From: Escherichia coli
GTDB lineage: Bacteria; Pseudomonadota; Gammaproteobacteria; Enterobacterales; Enterobacteriaceae
DNA: 64,000 bases
NCBI RefSeq assembly: GCF_048403405.1
Contig: NZ_CP183129.1
Reading direction: 5' to 3' (one strand)
The notes beneath the pieces were generated by a model, which saw only the letters and a list, made by a program, of their open reading frames with translations, ran no database searches and was not told where the DNA came from. The position numbers and the translations under genes are program-made. Every line of letters starts with the position of its first letter. The first letter of the stretch is position 1. Positions 14,001 to 33,910 of the stretch are shown in pieces.

Positions 14001-14702
14001 CTGAACACACCGGCACAGCTCTCTTTGCCACTTTATCTTCCTGACGACGAAACCTTTGCAAGTTTCTGGCCGGGGGATAACTCCTCTTTACTGGCCGCGC
14101 TGCAAAACGTGCTGCGTCAGGAACATAGCGGTTACATCTATCTCTGGGCACGCGAAGGCGCGGGGCGCAGCCATCTGCTGCACGCGGCTTGCGCGGAATT
14201 GTCGCAGCGTGGCGATGCGGTGGGCTATGTCCCGCTGGATAAACGCACCTGGTTTGTTCCGGAAGTGCTCGACGGTATGGAGCATTTGTCGCTGGTCTGT
14301 ATCGACAACATTGAGTGTATTGCAGGCGATGAGTTGTGGGAGATGGCGATTTTCGATCTCTACAATCGAATTCTGGAATCGGGCAAAACACGGTTGTTAA
14401 TCACCGGCGATCGTCCACCGCGGCAGTTGAATCTTGGATTACCGGATCTCGCGTCGCGTCTCGACTGGGGGCAGATCTACAAATTGCAGCCACTTTCTGA
14501 TGAAGATAAGTTGCAGGCGCTACAGTTACGCGCGCGTTTGCGTGGTTTTGAACTGCCGGAAGATGTGGGGCGTTTCTTGCTGAAGCGGCTCGACAGAGAA
14601 ATGCGCACGTTATTTATGACGTTGGATCAGTTGGATCGTGCGTCGATTACCGCGCAACGTAAGCTGACCATTCCGTTTGTGAAAGAAATTCTGAAACTGT
14701 AG
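14001..14702 (+). CDS. hda: DnaA-inactivating protein Hda (regulatory inactivation of DnaA)
   Basis: Track ORF 13956..14702 (GTG-initiated, 248 aa). Start placed at the in-frame CTG at 14001 (codon 16), which gives the 233-aa form; the longer GTG start is not excluded. Confidence 0.85.
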
Positions 14703-17930: not shown

Positions 17931-17963
17931 AGCCCGACGAACTGTTTCGCCGGGCTGATTTTT
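17931..17963. terminator. bidirectional terminator between perM and focB
   Basis: AGCCCG-n14-CGGGCT hairpin followed by GATTTTT. Overlaps the focB stop. Confidence 0.5.
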
Positions 17964-18810
17964 AGGGTTCCTGACGTAAATAAATAGCCCGATAACAAAT
18001 ACTCACCAGCACTGCACCGCCGATAATATTACCCAGCATCACCGGGAGCAGATTGGCGGTAATAAAATGGCTGACCGTCAGTACCGGAAAATTGTCTGCG
18101 CTACTGTGCGCCAGTTGCCAGAAGGAGGTAGGGGCGAAATGGCGAATGGCAATGGCGAACGGAATCACAAACAAATTGGCGATACAGTGCTCAAAACCAC
18201 TGGCGACAAACAGGGTGATGGGCAAAATCATGGCGACGATTTTGTCGCATAACGAACGTCCGCAATAACTCATCCATAGCGCCAGACAAACCATCAGATT
18301 GCACATAATGCCGAGGCTGACTGATTCAGTAAATGTATGATGCATTTTGCCCTCGGCGCAGTGTAAAACCGCGACTCCCCACATCGCGTTTTCACTCATC
18401 ACCAGCCCGGAAAACCAGATTAACAAACTGAAACAGGCAATACCTGCCAGATTACCGCAGGCCACCAGAAGTGCATTAATCAGCCATGTTCGCCAGCTAA
18501 TAACGCCCCGACTTTTTGCCATCACCGTCATTACCGACGAGGTGAACAGGCTGGTGCCGCAAACCGCTAGCAAAATAAAGCCGAGTGTAAAGCAAAAACC
18601 GCCCACCAGATGGGTTAATGCCTGTGAAGACGGGGCATCGGCGATAACGGTAAGGTAAAAAGTAAATCCGATCGCCATAAACACGCCTGCGGACATCGCC
18701 ATTAAAAAGACCGACACTTTGCTGCGGGCAATTTTATGGGCGGCAATCCGTTCAGCGATTGCCGCTTTTCTGGCGCTCAACTGCAAGTCGAAAGAGAGTT
18801 TGTTTCTCAT
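17962..18810 (-). CDS. focB: formate channel FocB (FNT family)
   Basis: 282-aa track ORF. Polytopic membrane protein. Position immediately downstream of hyfR. Confidence 0.9.
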   Translation of the reverse strand: MRNKLSFDLQLSARKAAIAERIAAHKIARSKVSVFLMAMSAGVFMAIGFTFYLTVIADAPSSQALTHLVGGFCFTLGFILLAVCGTSLFTSSVMTVMAKSRGVISWRTWLINALLVACGNLAGIACFSLLIWFSGLVMSENAMWGVAVLHCAEGKMHHTFTESVSLGIMCNLMVCLALWMSYCGRSLCDKIVAMILPITLFVASGFEHCIANLFVIPFAIAIRHFAPTSFWQLAHSSADNFPVLTVSHFITANLLPVMLGNIIGGAVLVSICYRAIYLRQEP

Positions 18811-18831
18811 GAATACTCCTGCAAAAGCAGA

Positions 18832-20844
18832 TTACAACACCTCGCGAACCGAGATCCCCAGACGCTGCATTCGTGACAGCAGCGTGGTGCGCTTCATCCC
18901 TAATCGTGTCGCCGCGCCACGGGGCCCGGCAACAATGCCATTGGTTTCTCGCAATACCTGAACAATGCGCTGACGTTCTTCTTCGTCATTCTCTGGCGTC
19001 ATCGGGTGCAGCAACTGCGCCATTGAACTGCGAAGCGCTGAATCTTCATTTAGCGTCGGCAGTAAACGGCTTTGTCGGACATTAAGATGTAAATTCAGAC
19101 TGTTACCACGAGTCAACAGTACCGCCCGCTCAATCACGTTTTCCAGCTCGCGCACGTTGCCCGGCCAGTCCCACGACATCAACTGGCGTAGTGCCTCGGT
19201 CGGGATGGCGTCAATTGCGCGATTCATATGGCGCGCCATTTTTTGCGTGAAATGCTTTGCTAAAAGAGGGATATCTTCCGGACGGTCGCGCAGTGGCGGC
19301 AGTTCCAGTGGGAAGACATTCAGGCGATAAAAGAGATCGCTGCGAAACTGGCGATCTTCAACCATTTGCCACAAATCACGGTTGGTGGCGGCAATGACTC
19401 TGACATTTACCGGGATCGTTCTACTCCCGCCGAGACGCTCAATCTCCCGTTCCTGCAATACGCGCAGCAGTTTAGGCTGAAGTTCTAACGGCAGATCGCC
19501 AATTTCATCGAGAAACAACGTGCCGCCATCGGCAATTTCAAAACGACCACGATGGGTATTAATCGCACCAGTAAATGCCCCTTTGTCATGACCGAATAAC
19601 TCACTTTCCAGAAGACTGGCGGGGATGGCAGCGCAGTTGATTTTGACCAGTGGCTTGTCGCGTCGTGGGCTAAGTTGATGGATCGCTCTGGCGATCACCT
19701 CTTTGCCGGTTCCGGTTTCACCACAAATCAACACCGTACTGTCGCTCTTCGCCACAATATCTACCTGCTGGAGCAAATCTTCCATTGCCTGGCTTTGATA
19801 GATAATGTCACCGACGCCCAGATTCGAAAGGAGCTGCTCGCTAAGCTGGTGGTTTTCTTGCTGCAAGCTTTCCTGCAAATCGGTCATGCTGCGCCAGGCA
19901 TCGGCATTGCCAACGGCAATAGCGATGCGATCGGCAATATGTTGTAGTAGCTGGCAGTTTTCCTCACTAAAGAGAGTGGAAGAGGTATGCGCCAGCAACA
20001 ATGCGCCCGGTGTATGGTTGCCAAAGGTGAGCGGTATAAGGAGCGCAGATTCGCAGCCGTTAGATGCAAGTAAGTGTAATAACGGGTCGCGTTGCCAGAG
20101 AAACAGATCGTCTGCACGGTGCGTCAAGGTCGGTTGTCGGGTTTGTAGCGTTTGTGTCAGCAATACACTTTCGCCAGGCATACAGCGTGGCAGACACGCA
20201 CAATGTGAGGCAGAAAGATCGCTGCACCACAGGCTGAACTTCTCGTTCTTTCGATGATCGCCCAGTACCATACTGACTGAAGCCAGACCGAAAAAATGAT
20301 GGATCTCACGAGCGACGTCTGCGATCAGATCGTCGAGATCAAGATGTGACAACACTGCATTAGTGATATCCACCAGTACCCGATGATGATCGCGATCTTT
20401 CTCCAGCAAACGCAGCGCCACCTGCTGTTCTTCATCATTGAGCCATGATTGCAGAACCGGAGTGATTATGTGTGCCAGCCAGTTAAACAGTGTGCAATCC
20501 TGGGGAGTAAAACGACTGCCGTGGGTGCGAATAAAGCGTAGCTCCGCCATTCCACTACTGCCGAGAAGGACGGCGTGGCGCGAATAATCGACCATCTCAC
20601 CCTGATACTCTGTTGTTGCCGTCACATCGCTGCCATCATCATGGTAGCGGTAATAGAAGTTGCTTTTGAGAACATGCAGTTCAATAAGTTGTACCGGGCT
20701 GAACGGCGGCGGCAGCGGGATGAAGGCGCGTAATAAAGACGCCTTGCCGTGTTTCTGCGCTAACCGCTCCGCGAGCATTCCGTTTACCGCTTCAATTGTT
20801 ATTCCTTGCGGCGGGGCAAACATCGCCTCGTCTGACATAGCCAT
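18832..20844 (-). CDS. hyfR: sigma54-dependent transcriptional activator HyfR (FhlA-like)
   Basis: Track ORF 18832..20847 trimmed to the second Met (670 aa). AAA+ sigma54-interaction motifs GETGTGKE and GAFTGA, C-terminal HTH. Confidence 0.93.
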
Positions 20845-20873
20845 CAACAGTCCTTATTAATGAGAAATCCTTC

Positions 20874-21287
20874 TCACGCAATTTTTCTGGCCATCAGATA
20901 GATGGCCGGTTCCTGCACAATTTCATCCAACAGATGAATGAATTGAATGCTACGCGCCTGCCACGCCGACTTCGCGTCATCTGCCAGTGGCGCGAATGCC
21001 TGGGTCAACAGGGCGGTGTGGCTGGCGTCAATAACAATCTCACCAAAGGTCATCACCCCCAGCATCTTACGTCGGGCTTGCTCCTCTTCGACCTGTGCAA
21101 GCCAATCTTCGTATTCCGTCTGTGGGCAGCGGAAGGCGACATTCAAACAATCAATCACGCCAACGTGATGACCGATAGCCAACGAGTAATACATTACCTG
21201 GGAGCTGTGTTCCGGCATCTCGTCGCTACTGGCGATAAATTTTTTTCGCAGCGTCCAGAAAACAATTTCCCCGCACGCCTCAGCCAT
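20874..21287 (-). CDS. hyfJ: hydrogenase-4 maturation/accessory component HyfJ
   Basis: 137-aa track ORF. Position in the hyf operon. Confidence 0.9.
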
Positions 21288-22038
21288 GTAACCCCCGGAG
21301 AACGCGAAAGAGTTGCTGAACGATACTATTGAGACGCGGATCGTCAGCTTCGCGCAACCAGGTGTTAACCCGATTTCCTGTAGGATCGTCGCTTAAATGG
21401 CGCAGGAGCCGATCGCAAATTTCTCGCCCCTGACGATAGCCCGCCAGCCGCCTCGCTTCTCGCTCAATGGCGATACGCTGTGATGGCGGGATTTGCGGCC
21501 ACAGCGGTTGCATGGTCACTCCGGTGGGATCGCGATAATCCACCGCGTGAATCTTCTGTTGCAGCAAACCGAGCGCCACGGCGAAACCGTGAATGGTGGC
21601 GGCCGGTGTTGGCGGGCAGCCGGGGATCCAAACATCAATGGGGACAATGGTGTCGCTGCCGCCCCAGACGCTGTAGAGATCGTGGAAAATACCGCCGCCG
21701 ACACCGCACGCGCCGTAGGAAACACAGATTTTATGATCGGGGGCAGACTCATACGCCCGAAGTGCAGGCATACGCATCGCCCGGGTGACTGCGCCAGTAA
21801 ATAACAAAATATCGGCGTGACGCGGTGATGAAACAACCTTAATGCCAAAACGTTCTGCGTCGAATACTGGTGTGATGGCGGCAAAAATTTCGATTTCGCA
21901 GGCGTTGCAGCCGCCGCAATCGACGCGATAAACGTAGGCCGAGCGACGGATATCCTGTAACAAATGCTGCTTCATCTTTTGCGTTTGCTCGTCCAGCGTG
22001 ATGGGCTGGCTGACATGTTGCGTAAGCACTGGACTCAT
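21280..22038 (-). CDS. hyfI: hydrogenase-4 small subunit HyfI (NuoB-like)
   Basis: 252-aa track ORF with Cys-containing NuoB-like segments ([16 protein letters not shown]). Confidence 0.93.
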
Positions 22039-22580
22039 AGCTGCTCCTTAGCCACCAGCGGTTCATCTGTGTCGTCGTTGATCAGCGTCGCGCGTTGTTT
22101 GCATTCCGGGCAGACGCTCGCTTGCGCCCGTAACATTTCGCGGTTTTGTGGCGCATTTTGTTGCTGTGCCAACAGTTCTGCAGCCAGTGCGACGGTTTTT
22201 TGCGGGGCAAACGGGCGTTCGCAACGGCTGCAACGTTGTAGATGGAACGTCGCGCGGGTATAGAGATCGGCTTTATTGGTGACGGTCAGTTCAAAGTTAT
22301 TGGTAAGCTGAATGGCTCTGGTCGGGCACACTTCTTCACAACGTCCGCAGTAAATACAACGCCCCAGATAGAGCTGCCAGGTGCGCGAATTTTGCTGGTC
22401 GTCGGTCTGGATAGTCAGCGCATTTGCCGGACAAGCACAGGCGCAGGCACCGCAGGCAATACATTGGCTGGGCATCAGGTCCGGTTTCCCGCGAAAGCCT
22501 GGGCTGACTTCCAGTGGTGCGAAGGGATATTTCACCGTCGCGGTTCCGGCGCGCATAATAGTTTTCAGTAACTTCAGCAT
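22035..22580 (-). CDS. hyfH: hydrogenase-4 4Fe-4S ferredoxin-type subunit HyfH
   Basis: 181-aa track ORF with two CxxCxxCxxxCP ferredoxin motifs. Confidence 0.93.
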
Positions 22581-22589
22581 CTTCTGTCC

Positions 22590-24305
22590 TTACTTCAGCG
22601 GCGAACGGTTACGATCAATGCCGTAGCGTTCGATCTCTTTATACGGCACGGTTTTTGACTGGCGCTTGCGCACATCAACCAGCGTCACACGGTCGGTACA
22701 GGAGTAGCAGGGATCAAGGCTACCGATAATCAGCGGTGCGTCAGAAACGGTATTGCCGCGCAGCATGTAACGCAGCACTGGCCAGTTGGCGTAGGTGGCG
22801 GCACGACAGCGCCAGCGGAACAATTTTTGGTTATCACCGAGCATGCTCCAGTGCACGTCTTCACCGCGTGGCGCTTCAACAAAGCCCAGCGCGAATGCGT
22901 GAGGTTTATAGCTAAAGCCTTCGGTCAGCAGTGGGGTATCCGGCATGTTGTCGAGGGCAAATTCCAGCATTGCCAGCGAATCAAACGTCTCTTTGACACG
23001 GACCATCACGCGGGAGAAGACATCGCCGCCGGTAAAGGTAAACAGCGTTTTTGGAATATTGCCGTAGTCGGCGTAGGGGTGATCAAAGCGCAAATCACGG
23101 GCAAAGCCACTGCCGCGGATCAGCGGCCCTACGGGGCTATAATCACGGGCGATTTGTCGGTCGAGAATGCCAATGCCCTGAGTGCGTTGTTCCATATTTG
23201 GCGTGGCAAGCAGCATCTCTACCAGCTCCGACACGTCGGCGCGCATCTCACGCACCAGTTTCAGCGTTTGCAGACGTTGCTCTTTGAGAATATCGCGGCG
23301 AACACCACCAATCAGATTCAGACCGTAGGTTTTACGCGACCCGGTCAGCAGTTCCGCCATCGTCATCGACTTTTCCCGCACGCGGAAAAATTGCATAAAG
23401 CCGGTATCAAAACCAACAAAATGGCAGGAGAGGCCAAGGTTGAGCAAATGACTATGCAGCCGTTCGACTTCCAGCAGAATCGAGCGAATAGTATGCGCTC
23501 GTTGCGGCACCTCAATCCCCAGTGCATTTTCAACCGAGTTGGTATAGGCCACACTGTGGGCAAAACCGCAAATCCCACACACGCGGTCGGATAAGAAGGT
23601 CACTTCGTTGTAGCCCATCCGCGTTTCTGCCAGTTTCTCCATGCCGCGATGGACATAAAACAGGCGGTAATCAGCATCGACAATTTGCTCGCCATCCACA
23701 AACAAGCGGAAGTGACCTGGTTCATCGGAGGTGATATGCAGCGGGCCGACAGGGATCACCCGCGCGTCGCTGTTGCCCTCGTTGATAAACGGATACGTTT
23801 CGGTATCAGTCGTCGGTTCAGGGCGCAGTCGATAATCCATCGCATCTTTGCGCAGCGGATGCATATCTTCCGGCCAGTCATCGGGCAACACCAGGCGACG
23901 CTGATCCGGCAGGCCAACCGGAATCAGCCCGTACATATCGCGAATTTCTCGCTCGCCCCAGACCGCGGCAGGGACGCGCGGTGTGACTGACGGAAACTCC
24001 CGACTGTCGGCATCGACCAGTGCCTTCACCACGATCCAGCATTTTTCAGCCCCTTCCATTGAAAGGGCATAATAAACCGCGTAATGACCGTTAAGTGTCC
24101 GCTCGTCGTTGCCAAACAGGACCGGAAGCCAGCCATCATGTTGATAATAAAGATAATGTACAACGTCAGGCAGCAGATTGATTTTCACCGTAATGGTGAC
24201 CTGTTCAGGCGTTTGTCGCTCTTCATCCAGCACCGCGCCGGGGAACTGCGTTTTCAGGGCGGCGAGAATCGCTTCGCCACGATTTGACGATGAATTAACG
24301 TTCAC
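22590..24305 (-). CDS. hyfG: hydrogenase-4 catalytic large subunit HyfG (NiFe, HycE-like)
   Basis: Track ORF 22590..24350 with HycE-like sequence and a C-terminal DPCYSC NiFe ligand motif. Start set at the in-frame GTG at codon 16 ((M)[11 protein letters not shown]); the exact start is uncertain. Confidence 0.88.
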
Positions 24306-25875
24306 TGTGTTTCTCCGAAACAGATGCGGTGCCTGAAGGCAAAAAATCATGCCAGGTGCTACGTTGTGCAGGCAGGTCGTGCGTCCCTGAGAGGACTATA
24401 GTGGAAGCGCCCGCCAGGATCCTGATGACAGGTTGTGGAATATGCGTTCCCATCGCCAGCATCATGACCAGCAGAATCACCATTGGCGAGGTGGTCAACC
24501 AGCCAAGTTCACCCCGGTTAACGGCCTGCGGCGGTTTCGCCATTAACACCCGCGCAGCCATCCGTACCAGGCCCGCCAGCACCAGCGTTAACAGCAATAA
24601 CAGCAGGACGATAATCAGCAGGTGATTACGTGCCAGTCCGGCGGTAACGGTCATAAATTCGCTAAGAAAAATGTTGAAGGGCGGCATCCCTGCCAACGCC
24701 AGCGCACCGCCGCCAAACAGCACGGCGGTAAATGGCATGATTTTAAGCATTCCGCAGACGACGTTGAGATCGCGCGTGCCGTACTTGAGCAGTACATTGC
24801 CGGAACCGCAGAACAGCAGCGTTTTTGCCAGACTGTGGTTTAAGGTGTGCAGCAGCGCAGCAAAAATTCCCAGCGGCCCGCCAATGCCTAGCGCCACCGC
24901 GACCAGTCCCATGTTCTCCACGCTGGAGTACGCCAGCAGACGCTTAATGTCCCGCTGTACCAGAATGAAAAATGCCGCCACGGCAACCGACAACATGCCG
25001 AAGATGAGCAACAACCGGTTGGGGAAATCGCTGCCGATGGCCTGGCAGATAATGATGTAATAGCGAATCAGCACCAACAGCGCGCAGTTCAGCAATACGG
25101 CGGAGAGCAGGGCGCTGACCGGACTCGGCGCTTCACTGTGAGCATCCGGCAGCCAGGCGTGCATGGGAAATAGCCCGGTTTTGGTGCCAAAGCCAATTAG
25201 CACAAACACAAAGGCCAACAGCATTAATGTTGGGTCAAGCAAGGACGATTGCTTAAGAACCTCGCTCCAGAATATCGCCATTTCTGCCTGCGGCATAACG
25301 CTGGCGGCGTTGGCGTATACCAGCACGGTACCGAACAGACCAAAAGCGACACCAACAGTACAAATAATGATGTACTTCCATGCAGCTTCCAGCGATGAAC
25401 GCTGACCGTAAATGCCTACCAGAAACGCCGAGCTTAAGGTGGTGGCTTCGATCGCCGCCCACATCACAATCAGGTTATTGCTGGTAACAACCAGCAGCAT
25501 GGTGAACAAAAACAGATGGAAGAAACCGTAGTAATCGCACAGCGTAACGGGTGAAAGCTCGCCGTGCTCCACTTCATGACGCATGTAGCCAATCGAGTAA
25601 ACACCGGTGAGAAAGCCAATCACACCAAGAATGGCGAGGAACAAACCGCCCAGACCATCAATATGAAGCCACAGTCCCGCAGCGAATATTTCTCCCGCAT
25701 CAGCGGCAGTTTGGACCACCCACAGTGCCAGAATCAGCAGCAGTGTGATCCCTAAGCTATGTAGTACTGTCACCGTGCGAGTCGCAGAGTGCCCCTGTTT
25801 CCGGCAGGCAAAACAGAGCAGTGAAAAAAGCAGCGGCGTGAGCAGGAGTAAAGCGAACATCACAGAATAACTCAT
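24295..25875 (-). CDS. hyfF: hydrogenase-4 membrane subunit HyfF (antiporter-like, NuoL/M/N family)
   Basis: 526-aa polytopic track ORF. Position in the operon. Confidence 0.93.
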
Positions 25876-25879
25876 CTCA

Positions 25880-26530
25880 TTATCCCTTCAGCGCGGTCAA
25901 GTTGTTCACGTCCAGCGTGCCGTGGGTACGCCATATTTTTCTTGCCAGTAACACCATTACAATGACGGCGAAGATGGCGTCGGTAGCGATACCAATTTCC
26001 ACCAGTTCCGGTGCACGCCAGGCAAGAAGCGCCAGCACCAGATGGGAGCCGTTTTCCATCAGGCAGTAACCAAAAATTTGCCGCAGGATATTGCGCTGGC
26101 TGACAATGCACAGCAGGCCAAGCAGAAAATGACCTAACGCCACCGCCAGCGCCGGTTTCAGCCCGGTAGCCATCGGTAGCTTCACGGGCTGAACGACAAA
26201 TGCGCAAAGCAGGACAATTAATGCCGCGAGCAATGCCATCATTGCCGGACCGAATAACGCTTTTTCCGGGATGTTCTGGGGAATATTTCGTGCAGCGTAA
26301 ATCATGATTAACGGTACCAGCAGCACTTTGGTGATAAAGGCGCTGGCGGACCAGATCAGCAGTTGCTCTGCGACGAACAGGCACGAGAGGGTGGCGAAAA
26401 TAGACACCAGCACCAGCGACTGGCAGGCGTAAAATCCGCATGACAGGCGATAGCTTTTGACACTAATCACAAACAGCGATGTCAGCATCATCAGTCCCGC
26501 CAGATTATTTACGATCATAGAACCGGTCAT
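25880..26530 (-). CDS. hyfE: hydrogenase-4 membrane subunit HyfE
   Basis: 216-aa polytopic track ORF. Position in the operon. Confidence 0.9.
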
Positions 26531-26541
26531 TCATCATCTCC

Positions 26542-27981
26542 TTACTGCAACCAGGTCGCGGCGATTACGCTGGAAATCAGCGACATCACAATCAGTACAA
26601 TCAACACCAGGCGCATTGACCCTGGCAGCGGTGCGGCATCGGCGACGGCCTCGCTCGGTTTGCCAGGCACAACGCGACCAAACCAGCGAATAAACCAGGC
26701 GAAACTGGCGACCGATTCAATCATCAGCAGAATCATGGCGGGCAGCAGGATCCAGTACTCCACTGACAACGCAAAACCGGCAGCAAACAGCGGGAATTTA
26801 CTGAAGAAGCCGTTGAATGGCGGCACGCCGGTAATTGCCAGCGCTGCCACGCAGAAACCCACGCCAGGCAACGGCAGGGTGTGCAATACGCCACGCAGAC
26901 GCGGCAACAAGCGCGTGCCGCAGCTGTAACTCAGCGCACCTGCTACAAGGAAAAATAGGCTTTTAGCGAACGCGTGGTTGACGATGTAGGCGATGCTGCC
27001 CTCCAGTGCCAGCCGCGAGCCGAAGATGGAGAGCGACAAGCCGAAGAACATCCAGCCAAGTTGAGTGATGGTCGACCAGGCCAGCAACCGCTTCATATCC
27101 TGCTGTGGCAAATACATCAGGAAGCCGTAAAGAATGGTGACCAGTGCCATGACCATGCCAACGCCGCCAATCACATGCGGGATATTGCCGCCGTCGATAA
27201 TGGCGCGGGCAAAAATGTAAACGCCCACTTTCACCATCGATGCGGCGTGGAGATAGGCGCTGATCGGTGTTGGCGCTTCCATTGCATCCGGTAGCCACGC
27301 TTGCATCGGTAGCTGGGCCGATTTCCCCCACGCGGCAAACAGGATGCCGCCATAAACCAGATAACGTGCATCGCCGTGTAACTCGTTCATCGCGCTAAGC
27401 GCAAACGTTCCGGTCTGCAAAAACAGCGTGGCGGCGGCAAGATACAACCCCAACGAACCGATATGGGTAATAAGCAACGCTTTTAGTGCCGAACGCTGCG
27501 CTTTATCGCTCTGGTAATAACTGATCAACGCCCAGGAGCAGCCGCCCGTAATTTCAAAAAACAACAACTGACCGAGCAGCGTCGAAGAGAGTACCAGTCC
27601 CGCCATCGCGCCGATAAACAGCAGCAAAAATGCGTAATAACGATTCGTGCCGTTATGCGGGTGTTCGCGATTTTTATCCGTCAGATAACCCGTGGAGTAG
27701 ATCGTGACCAGCAAACCGAGAAACACCACCACAAACAGAATCAGCGTACTCACGCGATCAATGACCAGGCCAAACAACGCCACATCCCCCACGTTGACCA
27801 ACGTCAACGTGACGGCAACTTTATCGGCCTGATAAAACGCGGAGATCAGCGACAACATGCACAGCGTGGTCAGCGCGGCGAACAAAATCCCCCATTCGGC
27901 GGCCCGACGTTGTGGCGAAAACGAAACGACCAGTGCGCCGATAAAAGGCAGCAATAACGTCGTCAGAGCAAGATTTTCCAT
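26542..27981 (-). CDS. hyfD: hydrogenase-4 membrane subunit HyfD (antiporter-like)
   Basis: 479-aa polytopic track ORF. Position in the operon. Confidence 0.93.
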   Translation of the reverse strand: MENLALTTLLLPFIGALVVSFSPQRRAAEWGILFAALTTLCMLSLISAFYQADKVAVTLTLVNVGDVALFGLVIDRVSTLILFVVVFLGLLVTIYSTGYLTDKNREHPHNGTNRYYAFLLLFIGAMAGLVLSSTLLGQLLFFEITGGCSWALISYYQSDKAQRSALKALLITHIGSLGLYLAAATLFLQTGTFALSAMNELHGDARYLVYGGILFAAWGKSAQLPMQAWLPDAMEAPTPISAYLHAASMVKVGVYIFARAIIDGGNIPHVIGGVGMVMALVTILYGFLMYLPQQDMKRLLAWSTITQLGWMFFGLSLSIFGSRLALEGSIAYIVNHAFAKSLFFLVAGALSYSCGTRLLPRLRGVLHTLPLPGVGFCVAALAITGVPPFNGFFSKFPLFAAGFALSVEYWILLPAMILLMIESVASFAWFIRWFGRVVPGKPSEAVADAAPLPGSMRLVLIVLIVMSLISSVIAATWLQ

Positions 27982-27997
27982 ATTTCGTCAGTGCTCC

Positions 27998-28945
27998 TTA
28001 CAGACCGGTTAACCAGAAGACCCATGCAAGCGCAGCAAGGCTGAAGCCAAGCCAGGTCACATGGTGAATGAGTAAAAAACGCCCGCGTGCCAGCGTGTTT
28101 TCTGCGATTGAGGCCAGTACAAAAATCAGCAAAACCTTGAGCAGCGTAACGACAAGTGAAGTCAGCAGGCAGGCGAGAGAAAGTTCTTGCGCGCGCCCAA
28201 AGGGCAGAAACAGGGCCACAAACAGTGCTGCCATCACGACCTGTTTCAGCCCCAGCCCCAACTTCGCCAACGCCAGCCCGGCACCGGAATATTCGGTCAG
28301 CGGGCCTTCCTGTAATTCCTGTTCTGCTTCAGCAACATCAAAGGGAATTTTTCCCATCTCAATGAAGCAGGCAAAACCACAGGCCAGTAACGCCAGTACG
28401 GTGGTTAGCGGCGAGTTCCAGCCCGTCGCCAGCGTCTTGCTGATCATCTCGATATGCGTGGAATCCGCTATCAGCGCCAATACCAGCAGTGAGAGAAGGA
28501 GCATGGGTTCGACCAGAATGCCGAGCGTCAACTCGCGACTGGCACCGACTCCCGCAAAGGGGCTTCCGGTATCCAGCCCGGAAAGAGCAAAGAAAAAACG
28601 AAACAGGGCAAGAAGATAGATAAGGGTGATCAGATCGCCGCCGCCCGCAAAAGGGGAAACGGTAATAAATAGTGGCAGGGCCATCGCCAGCACCAGCATG
28701 CTGCTGATTAATACCCACGGCATCAGGCGGAACATCAGACCTGAAGATGTCGGCGCAACTTCCTGGCGTTTAAACAGTTTGTGGATATCGCGATAATCCT
28801 GCCAGATCCCCGGTCCGCGACGGGAGTGCATTCGCGCGCGTATCTGCCGGGAAATCCCCGTAAAAAGCGGGGTTAGCACCAGCAGAGTCACGGCCTGTGC
28901 TAACGCAAAAATGATCAGATATCCGTCGCAAAGAGTTTGTCTCAT
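27998..28945 (-). CDS. hyfC: hydrogenase-4 membrane subunit HyfC (NuoH-like)
   Basis: Track ORF 27998..28966 trimmed to Met 8 (MRQTLCDGY, 315 aa). Confidence 0.9.
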   Translation of the reverse strand: MRQTLCDGYLIIFALAQAVTLLVLTPLFTGISRQIRARMHSRRGPGIWQDYRDIHKLFKRQEVAPTSSGLMFRLMPWVLISSMLVLAMALPLFITVSPFAGGGDLITLIYLLALFRFFFALSGLDTGSPFAGVGASRELTLGILVEPMLLLSLLVLALIADSTHIEMISKTLATGWNSPLTTVLALLACGFACFIEMGKIPFDVAEAEQELQEGPLTEYSGAGLALAKLGLGLKQVVMAALFVALFLPFGRAQELSLACLLTSLVVTLLKVLLIFVLASIAENTLARGRFLLIHHVTWLGFSLAALAWVFWLTGL

Positions 28946-28955
28946 GGTGATTTCC

Positions 28956-30974
28956 TTAGACGGCAATAGCGATTAGCAGCACAACCAGTGCGGCGACCAC
29001 ATACAGGCAATAGAGACGAAAGTCGCCGCTTTGCAGATGCTGTATTTCTTTGGCCAGCCGTTGGGTGGCGCTCACGATGGGGCGGATCACCCGCTCATCC
29101 CAGAAGGGTTCTGTGCTCTGAGCCCTGGCGGTGACATGCGCAAGACCTTTGTTCAGCCTCAGCGTAGGGTCGAGCTGTTGTCGTAGACGAAATAGCGCAC
29201 AAAAGACCACACGCAGCGGTTGCATCACGCCATTGCCTGACGGGGCCATCGCATTATCCCAGCCGTAGCCGCATGCCCAGGCATCTCCTGTGCGACGAAA
29301 CGCTGCGCGGCGCGAACGACACCACAGCCAGTAAAGGCCAGGCAGCAAAGGCATCGCCAGTAGTAACAGCAACAGTAATGAGGGAGTGACCCGTGTATGA
29401 AACGTGCCTGGTACAAGTGCTATTCCGCTGGCGACAGTGACGGGAGGGGTATTGGTAAACGCATGGGCAATGTGCATTATCTTCGGTGCCAGCCAACTGG
29501 CACTAAGCGCAATGAATATGCAGAGTGCCGCGAGCAGTAGCATGGCGACGATCATCGTATTCGGCACTTCCTGTGCCTCTTCAGCGTGTGTACTGCGCGG
29601 CGCTCCACAGAAAGTAATACCGTACATTTTGACGAAGCACATTACTGCCAGCCCACCAGTGACTGCCAGCATCACCATAGCAATAGGACCCGCAAGTTGT
29701 AGCGCTACGGCTTCCACACGACTTAGTGAGAACAGCGACTGCCAGGTGTACCATTCGCTGATAAAACCATTCAGCGGAGGAATGGCTGATATCGCGAGGC
29801 AACCAATCAGGCATGCTGCGGCTGTCCACGGCATCCGTTTTGCCAGTGCCCCCATTTTTTCCATGTCGTGGGTATGCAAACGCGAAATAATCGCACCCGC
29901 GCCGAGAAACAGCAGCCCTTTGAACAGCGCATGGTTGAGCAGATGAAACAGCGCGCCGAGCAGTCCAACAACGGTGAGCAGCGGGTCGTGCAGTGACAGA
30001 CCGACCATCGCCACACCGACCGCCAGCAAAATAATGCCGACGTTTTCGACGGTACTCCAGGCCAGCAGCCGTTTGATATCCTGTTCCGCCAGCGCATACA
30101 GCACGCCCAGGAGCGCGGAGATTGCGCCGATCGCCATCACCAGAATGCCCCACCACAGCGGCAAACCCGTTTGCGCCAGCAGGTCCATCGCTACTTTCAG
30201 GATGCCGAAAATACCGATTTTGACCATTACGCCAGACATCAACGCCGAAGCGTGCGATGGTGCGGCAGGGTGAGCGCGTGGCAACCAGCTGTGCAACGGC
30301 ATCATCCCGGCTTTCGCGCCAAAACCAAAGAAGGCCATCAGGAACACCGCCGACGCCAGCCCCGGAGAAAGTGAAAGCGTGCGGAAACTGGCAAAATCGA
30401 GGCTGCCGCTTTCGCGCCCCATCAGCAAGAAGGCGATCATAATCAGTACCGATCCGGCGTGGGCGATAAAAAAGTAGAGCATGCCAGCGTTGATTGACGT
30501 TTTATCCTGCCTGGCAATGACCAGAAACCAGGAAGACAGCGACATCATTTCAAACAGCACGATGAACCAAAAAGCGTTGTCCATCACCAGCAGGGCAACC
30601 ATCGATGCGATGAAAAGATTCATAAAGAAGCCCATCGCCGCCGCGCCTTTGCCCTCGTATTCGCGCATATAAGTCAATGAATAGAGCGAACAAACCACCA
30701 CCAGCAAGGAGATAACCAGCACCATAAATGCCGAGAGGCTATCCATTCGCAGGGTTAAATCGGCAAAGTCAAAAGGCGTGGCAAAACGGGCGACTAAAAT
30801 TACGCCTGCATGTAATTGCGTAATTCCGCTGATGATGCCAATCACGCCACCCACCAGCGATGTGATGCCGGAAAGCTTAATAGCCAGTCTGTCCAGACCG
30901 AGTAAAAACAGCGAAGCCAGACTGGCAAACAGATAGAGGATCAGCGACCAGGTTAATAATTGCAGGGCATCCAT
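28956..30974 (-). CDS. hyfB: hydrogenase-4 membrane subunit HyfB (antiporter-like)
   Basis: 672-aa polytopic track ORF. Position in the operon. Confidence 0.93.
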   Translation of the reverse strand: MDALQLLTWSLILYLFASLASLFLLGLDRLAIKLSGITSLVGGVIGIISGITQLHAGVILVARFATPFDFADLTLRMDSLSAFMVLVISLLVVVCSLYSLTYMREYEGKGAAAMGFFMNLFIASMVALLVMDNAFWFIVLFEMMSLSSWFLVIARQDKTSINAGMLYFFIAHAGSVLIMIAFLLMGRESGSLDFASFRTLSLSPGLASAVFLMAFFGFGAKAGMMPLHSWLPRAHPAAPSHASALMSGVMVKIGIFGILKVAMDLLAQTGLPLWWGILVMAIGAISALLGVLYALAEQDIKRLLAWSTVENVGIILLAVGVAMVGLSLHDPLLTVVGLLGALFHLLNHALFKGLLFLGAGAIISRLHTHDMEKMGALAKRMPWTAAACLIGCLAISAIPPLNGFISEWYTWQSLFSLSRVEAVALQLAGPIAMVMLAVTGGLAVMCFVKMYGITFCGAPRSTHAEEAQEVPNTMIVAMLLLAALCIFIALSASWLAPKIMHIAHAFTNTPPVTVASGIALVPGTFHTRVTPSLLLLLLLAMPLLPGLYWLWCRSRRAAFRRTGDAWACGYGWDNAMAPSGNGVMQPLRVVFCALFRLRQQLDPTLRLNKGLAHVTARAQSTEPFWDERVIRPIVSATQRLAKEIQHLQSGDFRLYCLYVVAALVVLLIAIAV

Positions 30975-31591
30975 TAGCGTTGCTCCTGAGTGAGGGAAAG
31001 GGGATCCTCCCCGCCATTGGCAAACCAGCTTGCGGCAAGGCGCTGTTTTTCTTTCATCTGACGTTGCAGGCTATCGTCGGTGATCAGCCGTAACGCCTGA
31101 TTCGGGCAAGCGCGAACGCAGGCCGGACCTTCTGGCAAGAAATCACACAGGTCGCATTTCACCGCGACGGTCTGGACACCCGGTTCCCAGCGCAGCAAAG
31201 CATGTTGGGTCGGCGCGTTTTCTTCGCCGTCTTTGAGTGAGCCGTCAGCCTGAAAAACATATTGCGCAGGGGCATTCACCGGACGGCTTCCTGAAGCGCT
31301 GATTGCGCCAAATGGGCAGACCACGGCGCAAAGCTTGCAACCAATACAAAGGCTTTCGTTGAGTTGGATCGCATCATCCCTCTGGGAAATGGCATTGACC
31401 AGGCAGACCTGCAGGCAAGGGGCTTCCTCACAGTGATGACACACGACAGGGGCAGTGAGTGTTGACGTCTTCGCCAGGGCCAGGCGCGGGTGTTGCTGTA
31501 AACCTTGCGTTTTATGCACGTCCGAACAGGCAGCGAGACAGGTATTACATCCTGTACACCACAGTGGTTCGGCCACCACAAAGCGGTTCAT
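30974..31591 (-). CDS. hyfA: hydrogenase-4 iron-sulfur subunit HyfA (HycB-like ferredoxin)
   Basis: Track ORF 30974..31630 trimmed to Met 14 (MNRFVVAEPLWCTGCNTC, 205 aa), which is preceded by AAGGAG. Multiple CxxCxxC motifs. Confidence 0.9.
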   Translation of the reverse strand: MNRFVVAEPLWCTGCNTCLAACSDVHKTQGLQQHPRLALAKTSTLTAPVVCHHCEEAPCLQVCLVNAISQRDDAIQLNESLCIGCKLCAVVCPFGAISASGSRPVNAPAQYVFQADGSLKDGEENAPTQHALLRWEPGVQTVAVKCDLCDFLPEGPACVRACPNQALRLITDDSLQRQMKEKQRLAASWFANGGEDPLSLTQEQR

Positions 31592-31629
31592 GTCGGCTCC
31601 TTGAAAATGATATGAAACATTGCATTTCA

Positions 31630-31649
31630 TATTGCATAAAGGATGCCAG
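31630..31649 (-). promoter_or_regulatory. candidate sigma54 (-24/-12) promoter of the hyf operon
   Basis: The minus strand reads CTGGCAT-CCTTT-ATGCA, with GG and GC at consensus spacing, about 40-55 bp upstream of the hyfA ATG. Coordinates uncertain by 1-2 nt. Confidence 0.5.
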
Positions 31650-31843
31650 TCTTATTAATTTAATATATTCAATAAGTTATGAATTAACTGGATTCTGAAC
31701 GGTACAAAAATGATGGTCATTAACGTTCAGCAAAAAATGGATTCGACACCCGTGTCGCAGGGGAACGCGAGAATGTGATCTTGATCACGAGAAGTGAGGT
31801 GTGCTGGCCGCAAGCGCAGCCAGCACGGAATGGAGCAAAGTAA

Positions 31844-32314
31844 TCAGGCGTGTTCTTTCAGCCAGTTCAGCACAACGTCGTGGTGATTGCTGGTTTTAAA
31901 ATCGTCAAAGACATGTTCGATTTTGCCATCAGCGTCAATCAGGAAGCTGATGCGATGAATACCATCGTAGGTTTTGCCCATGAAGGACTTTTCACCCCAG
32001 ACGCCGAATTGTTCGCACACCTGGTGGTCCTCATCAGACAGGAGCGTAAAGTTAAGCAGCTCTTTTTCCGCAAAACGGGAGAGTTTTTCAGGTTTATCGG
32101 TGCTGATACCCAGCACATCAACGCCCGCTTTTTTCAACTCATCCATGTTATCGCGTAAGCCGCAGGCCTGTACGGTACAGCCGGGGGTCATGGCTTTCGG
32201 GTAGAAATAAACCAGAACACGCTGTCCCTGGAAGTCGGTCAAATTAACTTGTTCTCCGTCTTGATCCGGCAAGCTAAATTTCGGTGCGATATCACCGGCT
32301 TTCAGTGGATTCAT
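31844..32314 (-). CDS. bcp: thiol peroxidase Bcp (bacterioferritin comigratory protein, peroxiredoxin)
   Basis: 156-aa track ORF (MNPLKAGDIAPKFSLPDQDGE) with peroxiredoxin motif PGCT. Confidence 0.95.
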   Translation of the reverse strand: MNPLKAGDIAPKFSLPDQDGEQVNLTDFQGQRVLVYFYPKAMTPGCTVQACGLRDNMDELKKAGVDVLGISTDKPEKLSRFAEKELLNFTLLSDEDHQVCEQFGVWGEKSFMGKTYDGIHRISFLIDADGKIEHVFDDFKTSNHHDVVLNWLKEHA

Positions 32315-32886
32315 TACTTAACTCCATCCTGTTCATCATGTTGGGAATAATTGACGACGTTAATACTGCCTTGTGCATTGAGTTCTGTACATAGGGCTTT
32401 GAACGCTTGCTCAATATTTGCTGCGTCCGCAGATGCGGGGCTGTGGGCGGTTATCTGAATATGCAACTGCGCAGCCCGTTCATTTTCAGCAGGTTGCGTG
32501 CGCGACACCAGCTCCGCAATGTTCATATGATGCGCGTCGAAAAGTGCTGTGAAGCGTTCAATTAAATGCGGGGAGTCTGCCACATCGACCTGAACCCAGA
32601 CAGATGCTGGCATTGGCGGACGCGGACGCGCCGTCGTGCGCTTCATCACGATTAAAAGATCCAGTTCTGCACCTTTCAACGGTAACGTTGATTCAATCAG
32701 AGTAATGGCATTCCATGAACCGGAAAGCAGCATGATAAACGTGAACTCTTCTCCCAGCATCGCCAGGCGACTGTCTTCAATATTACAGCCGCAACTACTG
32801 ACATGACGGGTGATGGTGTTCACAATTCCAGGGCGATCGGCACCCAACGCAGTGATCACCAGATAATGTTGCGATGACAGTGTCAA
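32314..32886 (-). CDS. gcvR: glycine cleavage system transcriptional repressor GcvR
   Basis: Track ORF 32314..32952 trimmed to the in-frame TTG at codon 23, giving (M)TLSSQHYLVITALGADRPG (190 aa, ACT domains). The stop overlaps the bcp start. Confidence 0.88.
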   Translation of the reverse strand: MTLSSQHYLVITALGADRPGIVNTITRHVSSCGCNIEDSRLAMLGEEFTFIMLLSGSWNAITLIESTLPLKGAELDLLIVMKRTTARPRPPMPASVWVQVDVADSPHLIERFTALFDAHHMNIAELVSRTQPAENERAAQLHIQITAHSPASADAANIEQAFKALCTELNAQGSINVVNYSQHDEQDGVK

Positions 32887-33031
32887 ACTGGTTATTCCTT
32901 TAAGGGGTGAGTTGTTCTTAAGGAAAGCATAAAAAAAACATGCATACAACAATCAGAACGGTTCTGTCTGCTTGCTTTTAATGCCATACCAAACGTACCA
33001 TTGAGACACTTGTTTGCACAGAGGATGGCCC

Positions 33032-33910
33032 ATGTTCACGGGAAGTATTGTCGCGATTGTTACTCCGATGGATGAAAAAGGTAATGTCTGTCGGGCTAGC
33101 TTGAAAAAACTGATTGATTATCATGTCGCCAGCGGTACTTCGGCGATCGTTTCTGTTGGCACCACTGGCGAGTCCGCTACCTTAAATCATGACGAACATG
33201 CTGATGTGGTGATGATGACGCTGGAGCTGGCTGACGGGCGCATTCCGGTGATTGCCGGAACCGGCGCTAACGCTACTGCGGAAGCCATTAGCCTGACGCA
33301 GCGCTTCAATGACAGTGGTATCGTCGGCTGCCTGACGGTAACCCCTTACTACAATCGTCCGTCGCAAGAAGGTTTGTATCAGCATTTCAAAGCCATCGCT
33401 GAGCATACTGACCTGCCGCAAATTCTGTATAATGTGCCGTCCCGTACTGGCTGCGATCTGCTCCCGGAAACGGTGGGCCGTCTGGCGAAAGTAAAAAATA
33501 TTATCGGAATCAAAGAGGCAACAGGGAACTTAACGCGTGTAAACCAGATCAAAGAGCTGGTTTCAGATGATTTTGTTCTGCTGAGCGGCGATGATGCGAG
33601 CGCGCTGGACTTCATGCAATTAGGCGGTCATGGGGTTATTTCCGTTACGGCTAACGTCGCAGCGCGTGATATGGCCCAGATGTGCAAACTGGCAGCAGAA
33701 GGGCATTTTGCCGAGGCACGCGTTATTAATCAGCGTCTGATGCCATTACACAACAAACTATTTGTCGAACCCAATCCAATCCCGGTGAAATGGGCATGTA
33801 AGGAACTGGGTCTTGTGGCGACCGATACGCTGCGCCTGCCAATGACACCAATCACCGACAGTGGTCGTGAGACGGTCAGAGCGGCGCTTAAGCATGCCGG
33901 TTTGCTGTAA
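33032..33910 (+). CDS. dapA: 4-hydroxy-tetrahydrodipicolinate synthase
   Basis: Track ORF 33014..33910 trimmed to Met 7 ([17 protein letters not shown], 292 aa). Confidence 0.95.

Follow-up and report, generated by a model that had tools for sequence, protein, structure and literature searches.

The UUG start of gcvR, its promoter region and its one-base overlap with bcp in an Escherichia coli genome

Background

The arrangement considered here has known counterparts in co-directional gene pairs of Escherichia coli whose stop and start codons overlap. Reporter tests of five native pairs with a -4 overlap demonstrated translational coupling in four of them; bioBF is the exception, with de novo initiation of its downstream gene (Huber et al. 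2019, PMC6728339). According to the same study, coupling matters only if local structure blocks de novo initiation at the downstream gene. A second type of overlap, the -1 spacing in which stop and start codon share a single base (TAATG or TGATG), is the second commonest arrangement of co-directional genes in prokaryotes (Brown & Wade 2025, PMC12548453).

The pair gcvR-bcp belongs to the latter type. The literature describes E. coli GcvR as a protein that binds glycine and GcvA and represses gcvTHP and gcvB, and the gcvR promoter as constitutive at a low level. In K-12 MG1655 the two genes are annotated as b2479 (gcvR, UniProt P0A9I3, positions 2599906-2600478) and b2480 (bcp, P0AE52, positions 2600478-2600948), with the same gene models and the same one-base overlap as in the DNA analysed here. 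The UUG start of gcvR, its 27-nt leader and the overlap of both genes are all established for E. coli, and none of the three is new. The biological import of the locus is accordingly small, the gene models being accepted and a -1 overlap being commonplace. The locus illustrates two more general points: longest-ORF logic mistranslates the gcvR promoter, where invariant DNA makes a false N-terminus look conserved, and a stop/start overlap by itself is insufficient to infer translational coupling.

Results and Discussion

Locus and gene models

The window, that is the whole stretch of 64,000 nt that was analysed (E. coli, contig NZ_CP183129.1), carries on its minus strand gcvR, bcp and hyfA, in this order, and divergently on its plus strand dapA and bamC. 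The two genes of interest are as follows.

32314-32886, minus strand: gcvR coding sequence, 573 nt (190 aa and stop), glycine cleavage system transcriptional repressor with tandem ACT domains
31844-32314, minus strand: bcp coding sequence (156 aa and stop), thioredoxin-dependent thiol peroxidase (PrxQ/BCP)

RefSeq/PGAP models on an E. coli record of 100% identity have identical boundaries (gcvR 32886-32314, bcp 32314-31844), as does the K-12 annotation. Of 5426 complete E. coli genomes, 5425 contain a match to the segment 31800-33100; identity is at least 99% in 5360 of the 5427 matching records. K-12 MG1655 differs from the window by only 6 substitutions in 1301 nt, none of which falls within 32884-32952 or at the gcvR/bcp junction, and data obtained in K-12 are therefore directly applicable to the window, which in this region represents merely another E. 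coli strain. The dapA/gcvR-bcp region is ordinary and well known, with gene models that match the accepted annotation.

The family assignments of both proteins are clear. GcvR is a full-length match to NCBIfam NF008612 (PRK11589; 397 bits, cutoff 267) and matches the structure of Vibrio cholerae GcvR (1U8S, E = 5e-39, residues 28-205 of the open reading frame aligned); its homologues carry matches to PF13740, PF01842 and PF13291 in line with tandem ACT domains. Judged by an identity of more than 99% to the E. coli GcvR of known glycine/GcvA function, the protein of the window would share that function. Bcp matches NCBIfam NF006960 with 309.9 bits (cutoff 140) over residues 1-155 of 156.

Start codon of gcvR

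The first question concerns the codon at which translation of gcvR begins. The relevant features are:

32884-32886, minus strand: annotated TTG start codon of gcvR, TTG in 82 of 82 loci, with codon periodicity beginning directly 3' of it
32896-32900, minus strand: gcvR Shine-Dalgarno sequence AAGGA, 9 nt before the TTG, duplex with the 16S 3' end of -5.6 kcal/mol
32947-32952, minus strand: two in-frame upstream TTGs (32952 and 32949), without Shine-Dalgarno sequence, not real starts

At this position the minus strand reads ...AAAGGAATAACCAGT TTG ACA CTG TCA TCG CAA CAT TAT CTG GTG ATC..., and translation from TTG 32886 gives (M)TLSSQHYLVITALGADRPG, with TLSSQHYLVI following the TTG. The list of open reading frames begins the same frame at TTG 32952, directly downstream of a TGA at 32955-32953, and thus arrives at 212 aa. 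The first-pass annotation had rejected that codon in favour of 32886, and its choice is confirmed: annotation, profile boundary, conservation, codon periodicity and Shine-Dalgarno sequence all agree on TTG 32886.

Conservation was evaluated in a set of 82 loci, consisting of 80 species-level Enterobacteriaceae loci, the window and L001. The start codon of gcvR is TTG in every one of them. Just 6.8% of the third-codon positions of gcvR are invariant in the alignment of these loci, hence the conservation of the TTG is beyond chance. The motif AGGA(A) keeps a fixed spacing of 9-10 nt to the TTG throughout the 82 loci, and in an alignment of 40 sequences AGGAA is invariant. Directly after the TTG, conservation by codon position is that of a coding sequence (0.96/0.99/0.69 for the three positions); for the 66 nt upstream it is flat (0.89/0.87/0.86). 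Protein comparisons place the N-terminus in the same region. Positions 1-189 of the NF008612 profile correspond to residues 23-211 of the 212-aa frame, and residue 4 of the 1U8S chain aligns to residue 28 of that frame. A search of 1.8 billion representatives retrieved distant full-length homologues, most of which pair their residues 2-4 with residues 6-8 of the query. More distant relatives use other start codons (GTG at 68% identity, ATG at 30-43% identity), and in the proteins of these relatives the conserved HYLV-type motif is preceded by 2-8 residues.

Translation from TTG 32952 (or 32949) would yield a 212-aa protein of ~23 kDa with the N-terminus MLYACFFYAFLK..., and we judge it to be extremely improbable. 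The frame is indeed open from 32952, databases carry GcvR models of 201-215 aa with a seemingly conserved N-terminus (MLYAGFFYAFL), and a longer transcript with a 99-nt leader (P2, see below) includes both TTGs. However, the duplex energies of the upstream TTGs are close to zero (0.0 and +0.2 kcal/mol), the segment 32887-32952 lacks codon periodicity, and profile and structural homologue begin at residue 23 of the frame or beyond. In more than 30 species, moreover, an in-frame stop is located 8-12 codons before the conserved TTG, with no ATG, GTG or TTG between the two, and therefore no alternative gcvR start exists there. Further evidence against the extended protein comes from the promoter region and is given in the next section.

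It is likewise hardly conceivable that GcvR starts further into the gene than 32886, where codon 10 (GTG) and codon 14 (TTG) are examples of in-frame candidates. The codon-10 GTG has no Shine-Dalgarno sequence (+1.5 kcal/mol), and codons 2-9 look like coding sequence, with conserved residues S-S-Q-H-Y-L and variable third positions. The residues of these codons are included in the GcvR profile, and distant homologues likewise carry 2-8 residues ahead of their HYLV-type motif. Ghrist and Stauffer, writing in J Bacteriol in 1998, reportedly identified UUG as the start codon of gcvR by sequencing the N-terminus of a GcvR-LacZ fusion. Our full-text search of the literature for gcvR together with UUG, TTG or 'start codon' returned nothing relevant, and the supplements of one initiation-profiling paper contain no gcvR entry.

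Promoter and leader upstream of gcvR

The segment between the UUG and the upstream TTGs coincides with mapped transcription signals:

32913, minus strand: gcvR transcription start P1 (TSS 2597901, 27 reads, 5' UTR of 27 nt; Kim et al. 2012)
32985, minus strand: gcvR transcription start P2 (TSS 2597829, 17 reads, 5' UTR of 99 nt; Kim et al. 2012)
32921-32950, minus strand: invariant 30-nt block GTTGTATGCATGTTTTTTTTATGCTTTCCT, from -37 to -8 relative to P1

Both starts, 27 nt and 99 nt upstream of gcvR, are listed in Table S1 of Kim et al. 2012 (PLoS Genet) and were placed on the window via the gcvR start codon. The 30-nt block is ~100% conserved in 78 distinct Enterobacteriaceae sequences, contains a T8 run and has no codon periodicity; its conservation exceeds that of the first and second codon positions of gcvR. 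Since it spans -37 to -8 of P1, the block represents the P1 core promoter region. Its distance to the TTG varies by species (45, 46, 47, 50 or 58 nt), so that, owing to indels, the block occurs in each of the three frames relative to TTG 32886, which argues that the segment is not translated. The upstream TTGs themselves lie 39 and 36 nt before the main start site, within the P1 core promoter, and are therefore missing from the main transcript. The 'conserved peptide' at the N-terminus of the long models is a mere translation of the invariant DNA block. Taken together, the 22-codon 'extension' to 32952 consists of promoter, P1 start and 27-nt leader, and is not coding. A primary gcvR start 27 bp upstream and a minor start ~100 bp upstream were reportedly described by Ghrist and Stauffer in 1998. 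These positions agree with the 27 nt and 99 nt of Kim et al.

A consensus promoter scan of the gene strand gave no sigma-70-like site, and upstream of P1 no sigma-70 -10 hexamer is recognisable at the right spacing, nor can convincing -10/-35 hexamers be assigned by eye. An Rfam scan of 32250-33100 gave no match.

We note several additional observations in this region. The 3' end of GTTGTATGCATGTTTTTTTTATGCTTTCCT contains UUCCUU, which is complementary to the gcvR Shine-Dalgarno sequence AAGGAA. A leader hairpin formed by the two elements was considered (z = -1.05) and rejected: both arms are invariant and show no covariation, and transcription from P1 starts downstream of UUCCUU, so that masking would be possible only on P2 transcripts. 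Also rejected was a mini-ORF within the invariant block (MHVFFMLSL...), which has no Shine-Dalgarno sequence, invariant third positions and a variable C-terminus. On the plus strand, the published start of dapA at 33008 lies 7 nt after TACCAT (32996-33001), with TTGCTT (32972-32977) 18 nt further upstream; this pair of hexamers, read from the sequence, fits the published start. The resulting dapA promoter (32972-33008) overlaps the divergent P2 start of gcvR at 32985.

The gcvR/bcp junction

The 3' end of gcvR reads ...GGA GTT AAG TAA TG..., and the junction is composed as follows.

32312-32316, minus strand: TAATG junction, with gcvR stop TAA at 32316-32314 and bcp start ATG at 32314-32312, one base shared

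The overlap of stop and start by one base, reported by the first-pass annotation, is seen in the sequence itself, in the RefSeq/PGAP models and in K-12. Among 81 Enterobacteriaceae loci the spacing of gcvR and bcp is -1 in 71, -4 in 4 and +2 or +3 in the remaining 6, so that a -1 or -4 overlap is retained in 75 loci. As the -1 spacing is common in prokaryotes and 5 of the 26 co-directional neighbour pairs in the surrounding 41 kb also overlap, the gcvR/bcp overlap is unremarkable on its own.

The junction is nevertheless under nucleotide-level constraint in addition to that on the protein, as indicated by raised synonymous-site conservation within 32200-32420 (minus strand). In 80 sequences, values are 0.72-0.85 over the last ~100 nt of gcvR, whose mean is 0.67, and 0.83-0.91 over the first ~120 nt of bcp, compared to 0.75. 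This constraint could stem from the initiation region of bcp, from an internal promoter or from some coupling; together with the conserved tight spacing it would fit some selected role of the junction.

Farther from E. coli, the gene pair persists and its tight spacing is lost. A relative with 68% GcvR identity has TAGTG at the junction. Among relatives at 30-43% GcvR identity, four of the five that were looked up keep the order bamC-dapA followed by divergent gcvR-bcp, with gaps of 9, 13, 35 and 74-80 nt between the latter two genes. A pair of GcvR-like ACT-domain protein and Bcp peroxiredoxin is hence found beside dapA and bamC down to ~30% GcvR identity. The retained pairing, the invariant UUG and the invariant promoter block may reflect a functional link that goes beyond inherited gene order, a suggestion that we regard as quite improbable and mention for its consequences. 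If the link existed, GcvR dosage would be tied to peroxide defence, to give one example, or a redox input would reach the regulation of glycine cleavage and one-carbon metabolism, to give another; the tight junction and the internal promoter would then fix the ratio of GcvR to Bcp.

Transcription, initiation and abundance of bcp

The sequence around the junction contains signals for expression of bcp:

32322-32325, minus strand: bcp Shine-Dalgarno sequence GGAG, 7 nt before the ATG, within the gcvR codons Asp-Gly-Val (-6.5 kcal/mol)
32327, minus strand: bcp transcription start inside gcvR, with a 13-nt leader (TSS 2598487, 11 reads; Kim et al. 2012, Table S1)
32327-32363, minus strand: candidate internal bcp promoter, TTAACG (32363-32358), 17-nt spacer and CATGAT (32340-32335)
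31744-31826, minus strand: two hairpins after the bcp stop (terminator scan; the fold of 31720-31850 has -39 kcal/mol, z = -2.8)

The sequence at the bcp Shine-Dalgarno, GGATGGAG, is nearly invariant between species. Folding of the 111-nt junction region yields a predicted minimum free energy no better than that of shuffled sequences (z = +0.42), and in the predicted centroid fold both the Shine-Dalgarno sequence and the AUG of bcp are unpaired.

Expression of bcp from a promoter of its own, which the first-pass annotation had named as evidence against coupling, is supported by the published start 13 nt upstream of the ATG. A start at 32327 produces transcripts that contain the bcp Shine-Dalgarno sequence and lack gcvR. 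This start rests on 11 reads, compared to 27 and 17 for the two gcvR starts, in a table (Kim et al. 2012, Table S1) that holds many low-count intragenic sites. It is located 7 nt after CATGAT. The hexamers TTAACG and CATGAT were read by eye and agree with the consensus at 8 of 12 positions, which is below the scan threshold; the candidate -10 reads CATGAC in roughly a fifth of the species. As a side observation, RNA initiated at 32327 begins with AUG (AUGGAGUUAAGUAAUG...), which opens an out-of-frame ORF of 11 codons (MELSNESTESR).

Read-through from gcvR into bcp may also occur; the terminator scan finds no terminator between the two genes. The hairpins downstream of bcp likely mark the 3' end of the gcvR-bcp unit: the first is an 11-bp G+C-rich stem (31826-31801) without T-run, the second resembles a terminator, with a T-run after its stem (31757-31744). 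GcvR and Bcp protein levels co-vary across conditions (log r = 0.73), which fits shared transcription from the gcvR promoters, and transcriptome data give weak hints of co-variation. The supplements of SMRT-Cappable-seq, Conway 2014, tetracycline ribosome profiling and Cappable-seq were searched for gcvR and bcp, and no entry was found.

Protein abundance offers a quantitative test of coupling. In the absolute proteome of Mori et al. 2021, whose mass fractions are calibrated with ribosome profiling, the ratio of Bcp to GcvR has a median of 8.9 by mass fraction (Dataset EV9, 36 samples), and two further datasets of the same study give similar values. The corresponding molar ratio is ~10.5 (range 7.3-14.9 in the 36 samples), where accurate absolute quantification and similar stability of both proteins are assumed. 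Reinitiation delivers at most one Bcp per GcvR, hence at a ratio of ~10:1 it supplies roughly 7-14% of Bcp at best. With a share this small, the remaining Bcp stems from direct initiation, provided that the stabilities of the two proteins are similar.

These data bear on the proposal that translation of bcp depends substantially on gcvR, with ribosomes terminating at the UAA and reinitiating at the overlapping AUG. We consider such dependence unlikely. It would agree with the real TAATG overlap and its retention as -1 or -4 spacing across Enterobacteriaceae, with the outcome of the reporter tests on native overlapping pairs, with the co-variation of both proteins and with the elevated synonymous-site conservation near the junction. 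Against it stand the ~10-fold molar excess of Bcp over the 1:1 ceiling for reinitiation and the weak UUG start of gcvR, owing to which few ribosomes reach the junction. The good Shine-Dalgarno sequence of bcp in a region predicted to be unstructured leaves de novo initiation unblocked, the start 13 nt before the ATG gives transcripts without gcvR, and more distant relatives have the same gene order with gaps of 9-80 nt. In addition, bioBF provides a precedent for overlap without coupling (Huber et al. 2019). The suggestion of the first-pass annotation that the overlap couples regulator and peroxiredoxin therefore holds for the overlap itself and not for substantial coupling, given the 10:1 ratio of Bcp to GcvR, the Shine-Dalgarno sequence of bcp and the internal start. 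Coupling is a minor effect at most, with some coupling possible on the bicistronic mRNA, and expression of bcp seems to be largely independent of gcvR.

Proposed explanation

The account that we favour, and consider highly probable as a whole, comprises a gcvR start at UUG 32886, promoter and leader upstream of it, and a bcp gene that is mostly initiated directly. A weak promoter with its start 27 nt before the UUG would provide most transcription of gcvR, and translation would begin at UUG 32886 with the help of a moderate Shine-Dalgarno sequence (AAGGA). The 66 nt that separate this UUG from the upstream TTG would serve as promoter and leader and be non-coding. Weak promoter and weak start codon together may keep GcvR, an accessory repressor, at a low and steady level.

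At the other end of the gene, the UAAUG overlap would allow one mRNA to serve both genes, and ribosomes that have finished gcvR could reinitiate at bcp. Most Bcp, however, would be made by ribosomes that bind the GGAG Shine-Dalgarno sequence of bcp directly. The RNA bound would be the bicistronic mRNA or a short transcript initiated inside gcvR, 13 nt before the bcp AUG. If AUG with GGAG were translated ~10-fold more than UUG with AAGGA, this would be in line with the known weakness of UUG starts. The one-base overlap would then be ordinary compact operon architecture, to which coupling contributes little at most.

Database models and neighbouring genes

Many GcvR models of 201-215 aa are present in public databases (P0002, P0009, P0061, P0006, P0010 and P0020). 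Among them are a Salmonella entry of 212 aa, which comprises 810 member sequences, and an entry of 211 aa from Klebsiella oxytoca. These long models (MLYAGFFYAFL...) are a recurring start mis-annotation in which the invariant promoter block is translated. A different case is P0030, which is assigned to the fungus Astraeus odoratus as a 'hypothetical protein' of 331 aa. It is a model of a GcvR-Bcp fusion with 89% identity to E. coli GcvR, and most likely represents enterobacterial contamination in which a eukaryotic gene caller bridged the overlapping junction.

Other start codons in the window are also of note. The ORF list places the start of hyfA (30974-31630, minus strand) at ATG 31630 (218 aa), the annotation at ATG 31591 (205 aa). 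The genes hyfA and hyfB overlap by one base too, with TAATG at about 30974. The gene hda (window position 14001, plus strand) has an annotated CTG start (CTGAACACACCG...), and narQ and hyfG have GTG starts.

The gene order downstream of bcp differs between genomes. At two distant loci (L083 and L085) bcp is directly followed by a convergent gene for an AI-2E transporter, a homologue of yfgO. In the E. coli window the hyfA-R/focB cluster (~17960-31591) is located between bcp and yfgO, and in a Klebsiella orthologue table the entry after b2480 is b2493. The hyf cluster has the appearance of an insertion between bcp and yfgO.

Comparison with known systems

The pairs hyfHI, astDB and menDH, which are translationally coupled (Huber et al. 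2019; reviewed by Brown & Wade 2025), share two properties with gcvR-bcp: stop and start codons of co-directional genes overlap, and the downstream Shine-Dalgarno sequence is located inside the upstream gene. The spacing is -1 for gcvR-bcp versus -4 in the tested coupled pairs, and with its TAATG junction gcvR-bcp has one of the two overlaps (-4 or -1) that characterise such pairs. Two other traits differ from what coupling would lead one to expect. Downstream output should be no higher than upstream output if the same ribosomes are used; for gcvR-bcp the molar ratio of Bcp to GcvR is ~10.5:1. The downstream initiation region should be masked by structure; that of bcp is predicted to be open (z = +0.42). 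Unlike the coupled pairs, gcvR-bcp combines ~10-fold more downstream product with a weak UUG start of the upstream gene and an internal transcription start site.

The closer counterpart is bioB-bioF, which resembles gcvR-bcp in the overlap of stop and start codon and in de novo initiation of the downstream gene, proposed here as the main route to Bcp. The two pairs differ in that the Shine-Dalgarno sequence of bioF is very weak and that of bcp is good. They also differ in the kind of evidence, as the result for bioBF is experimental, whereas the case for bcp is drawn from abundance and transcription start site data.
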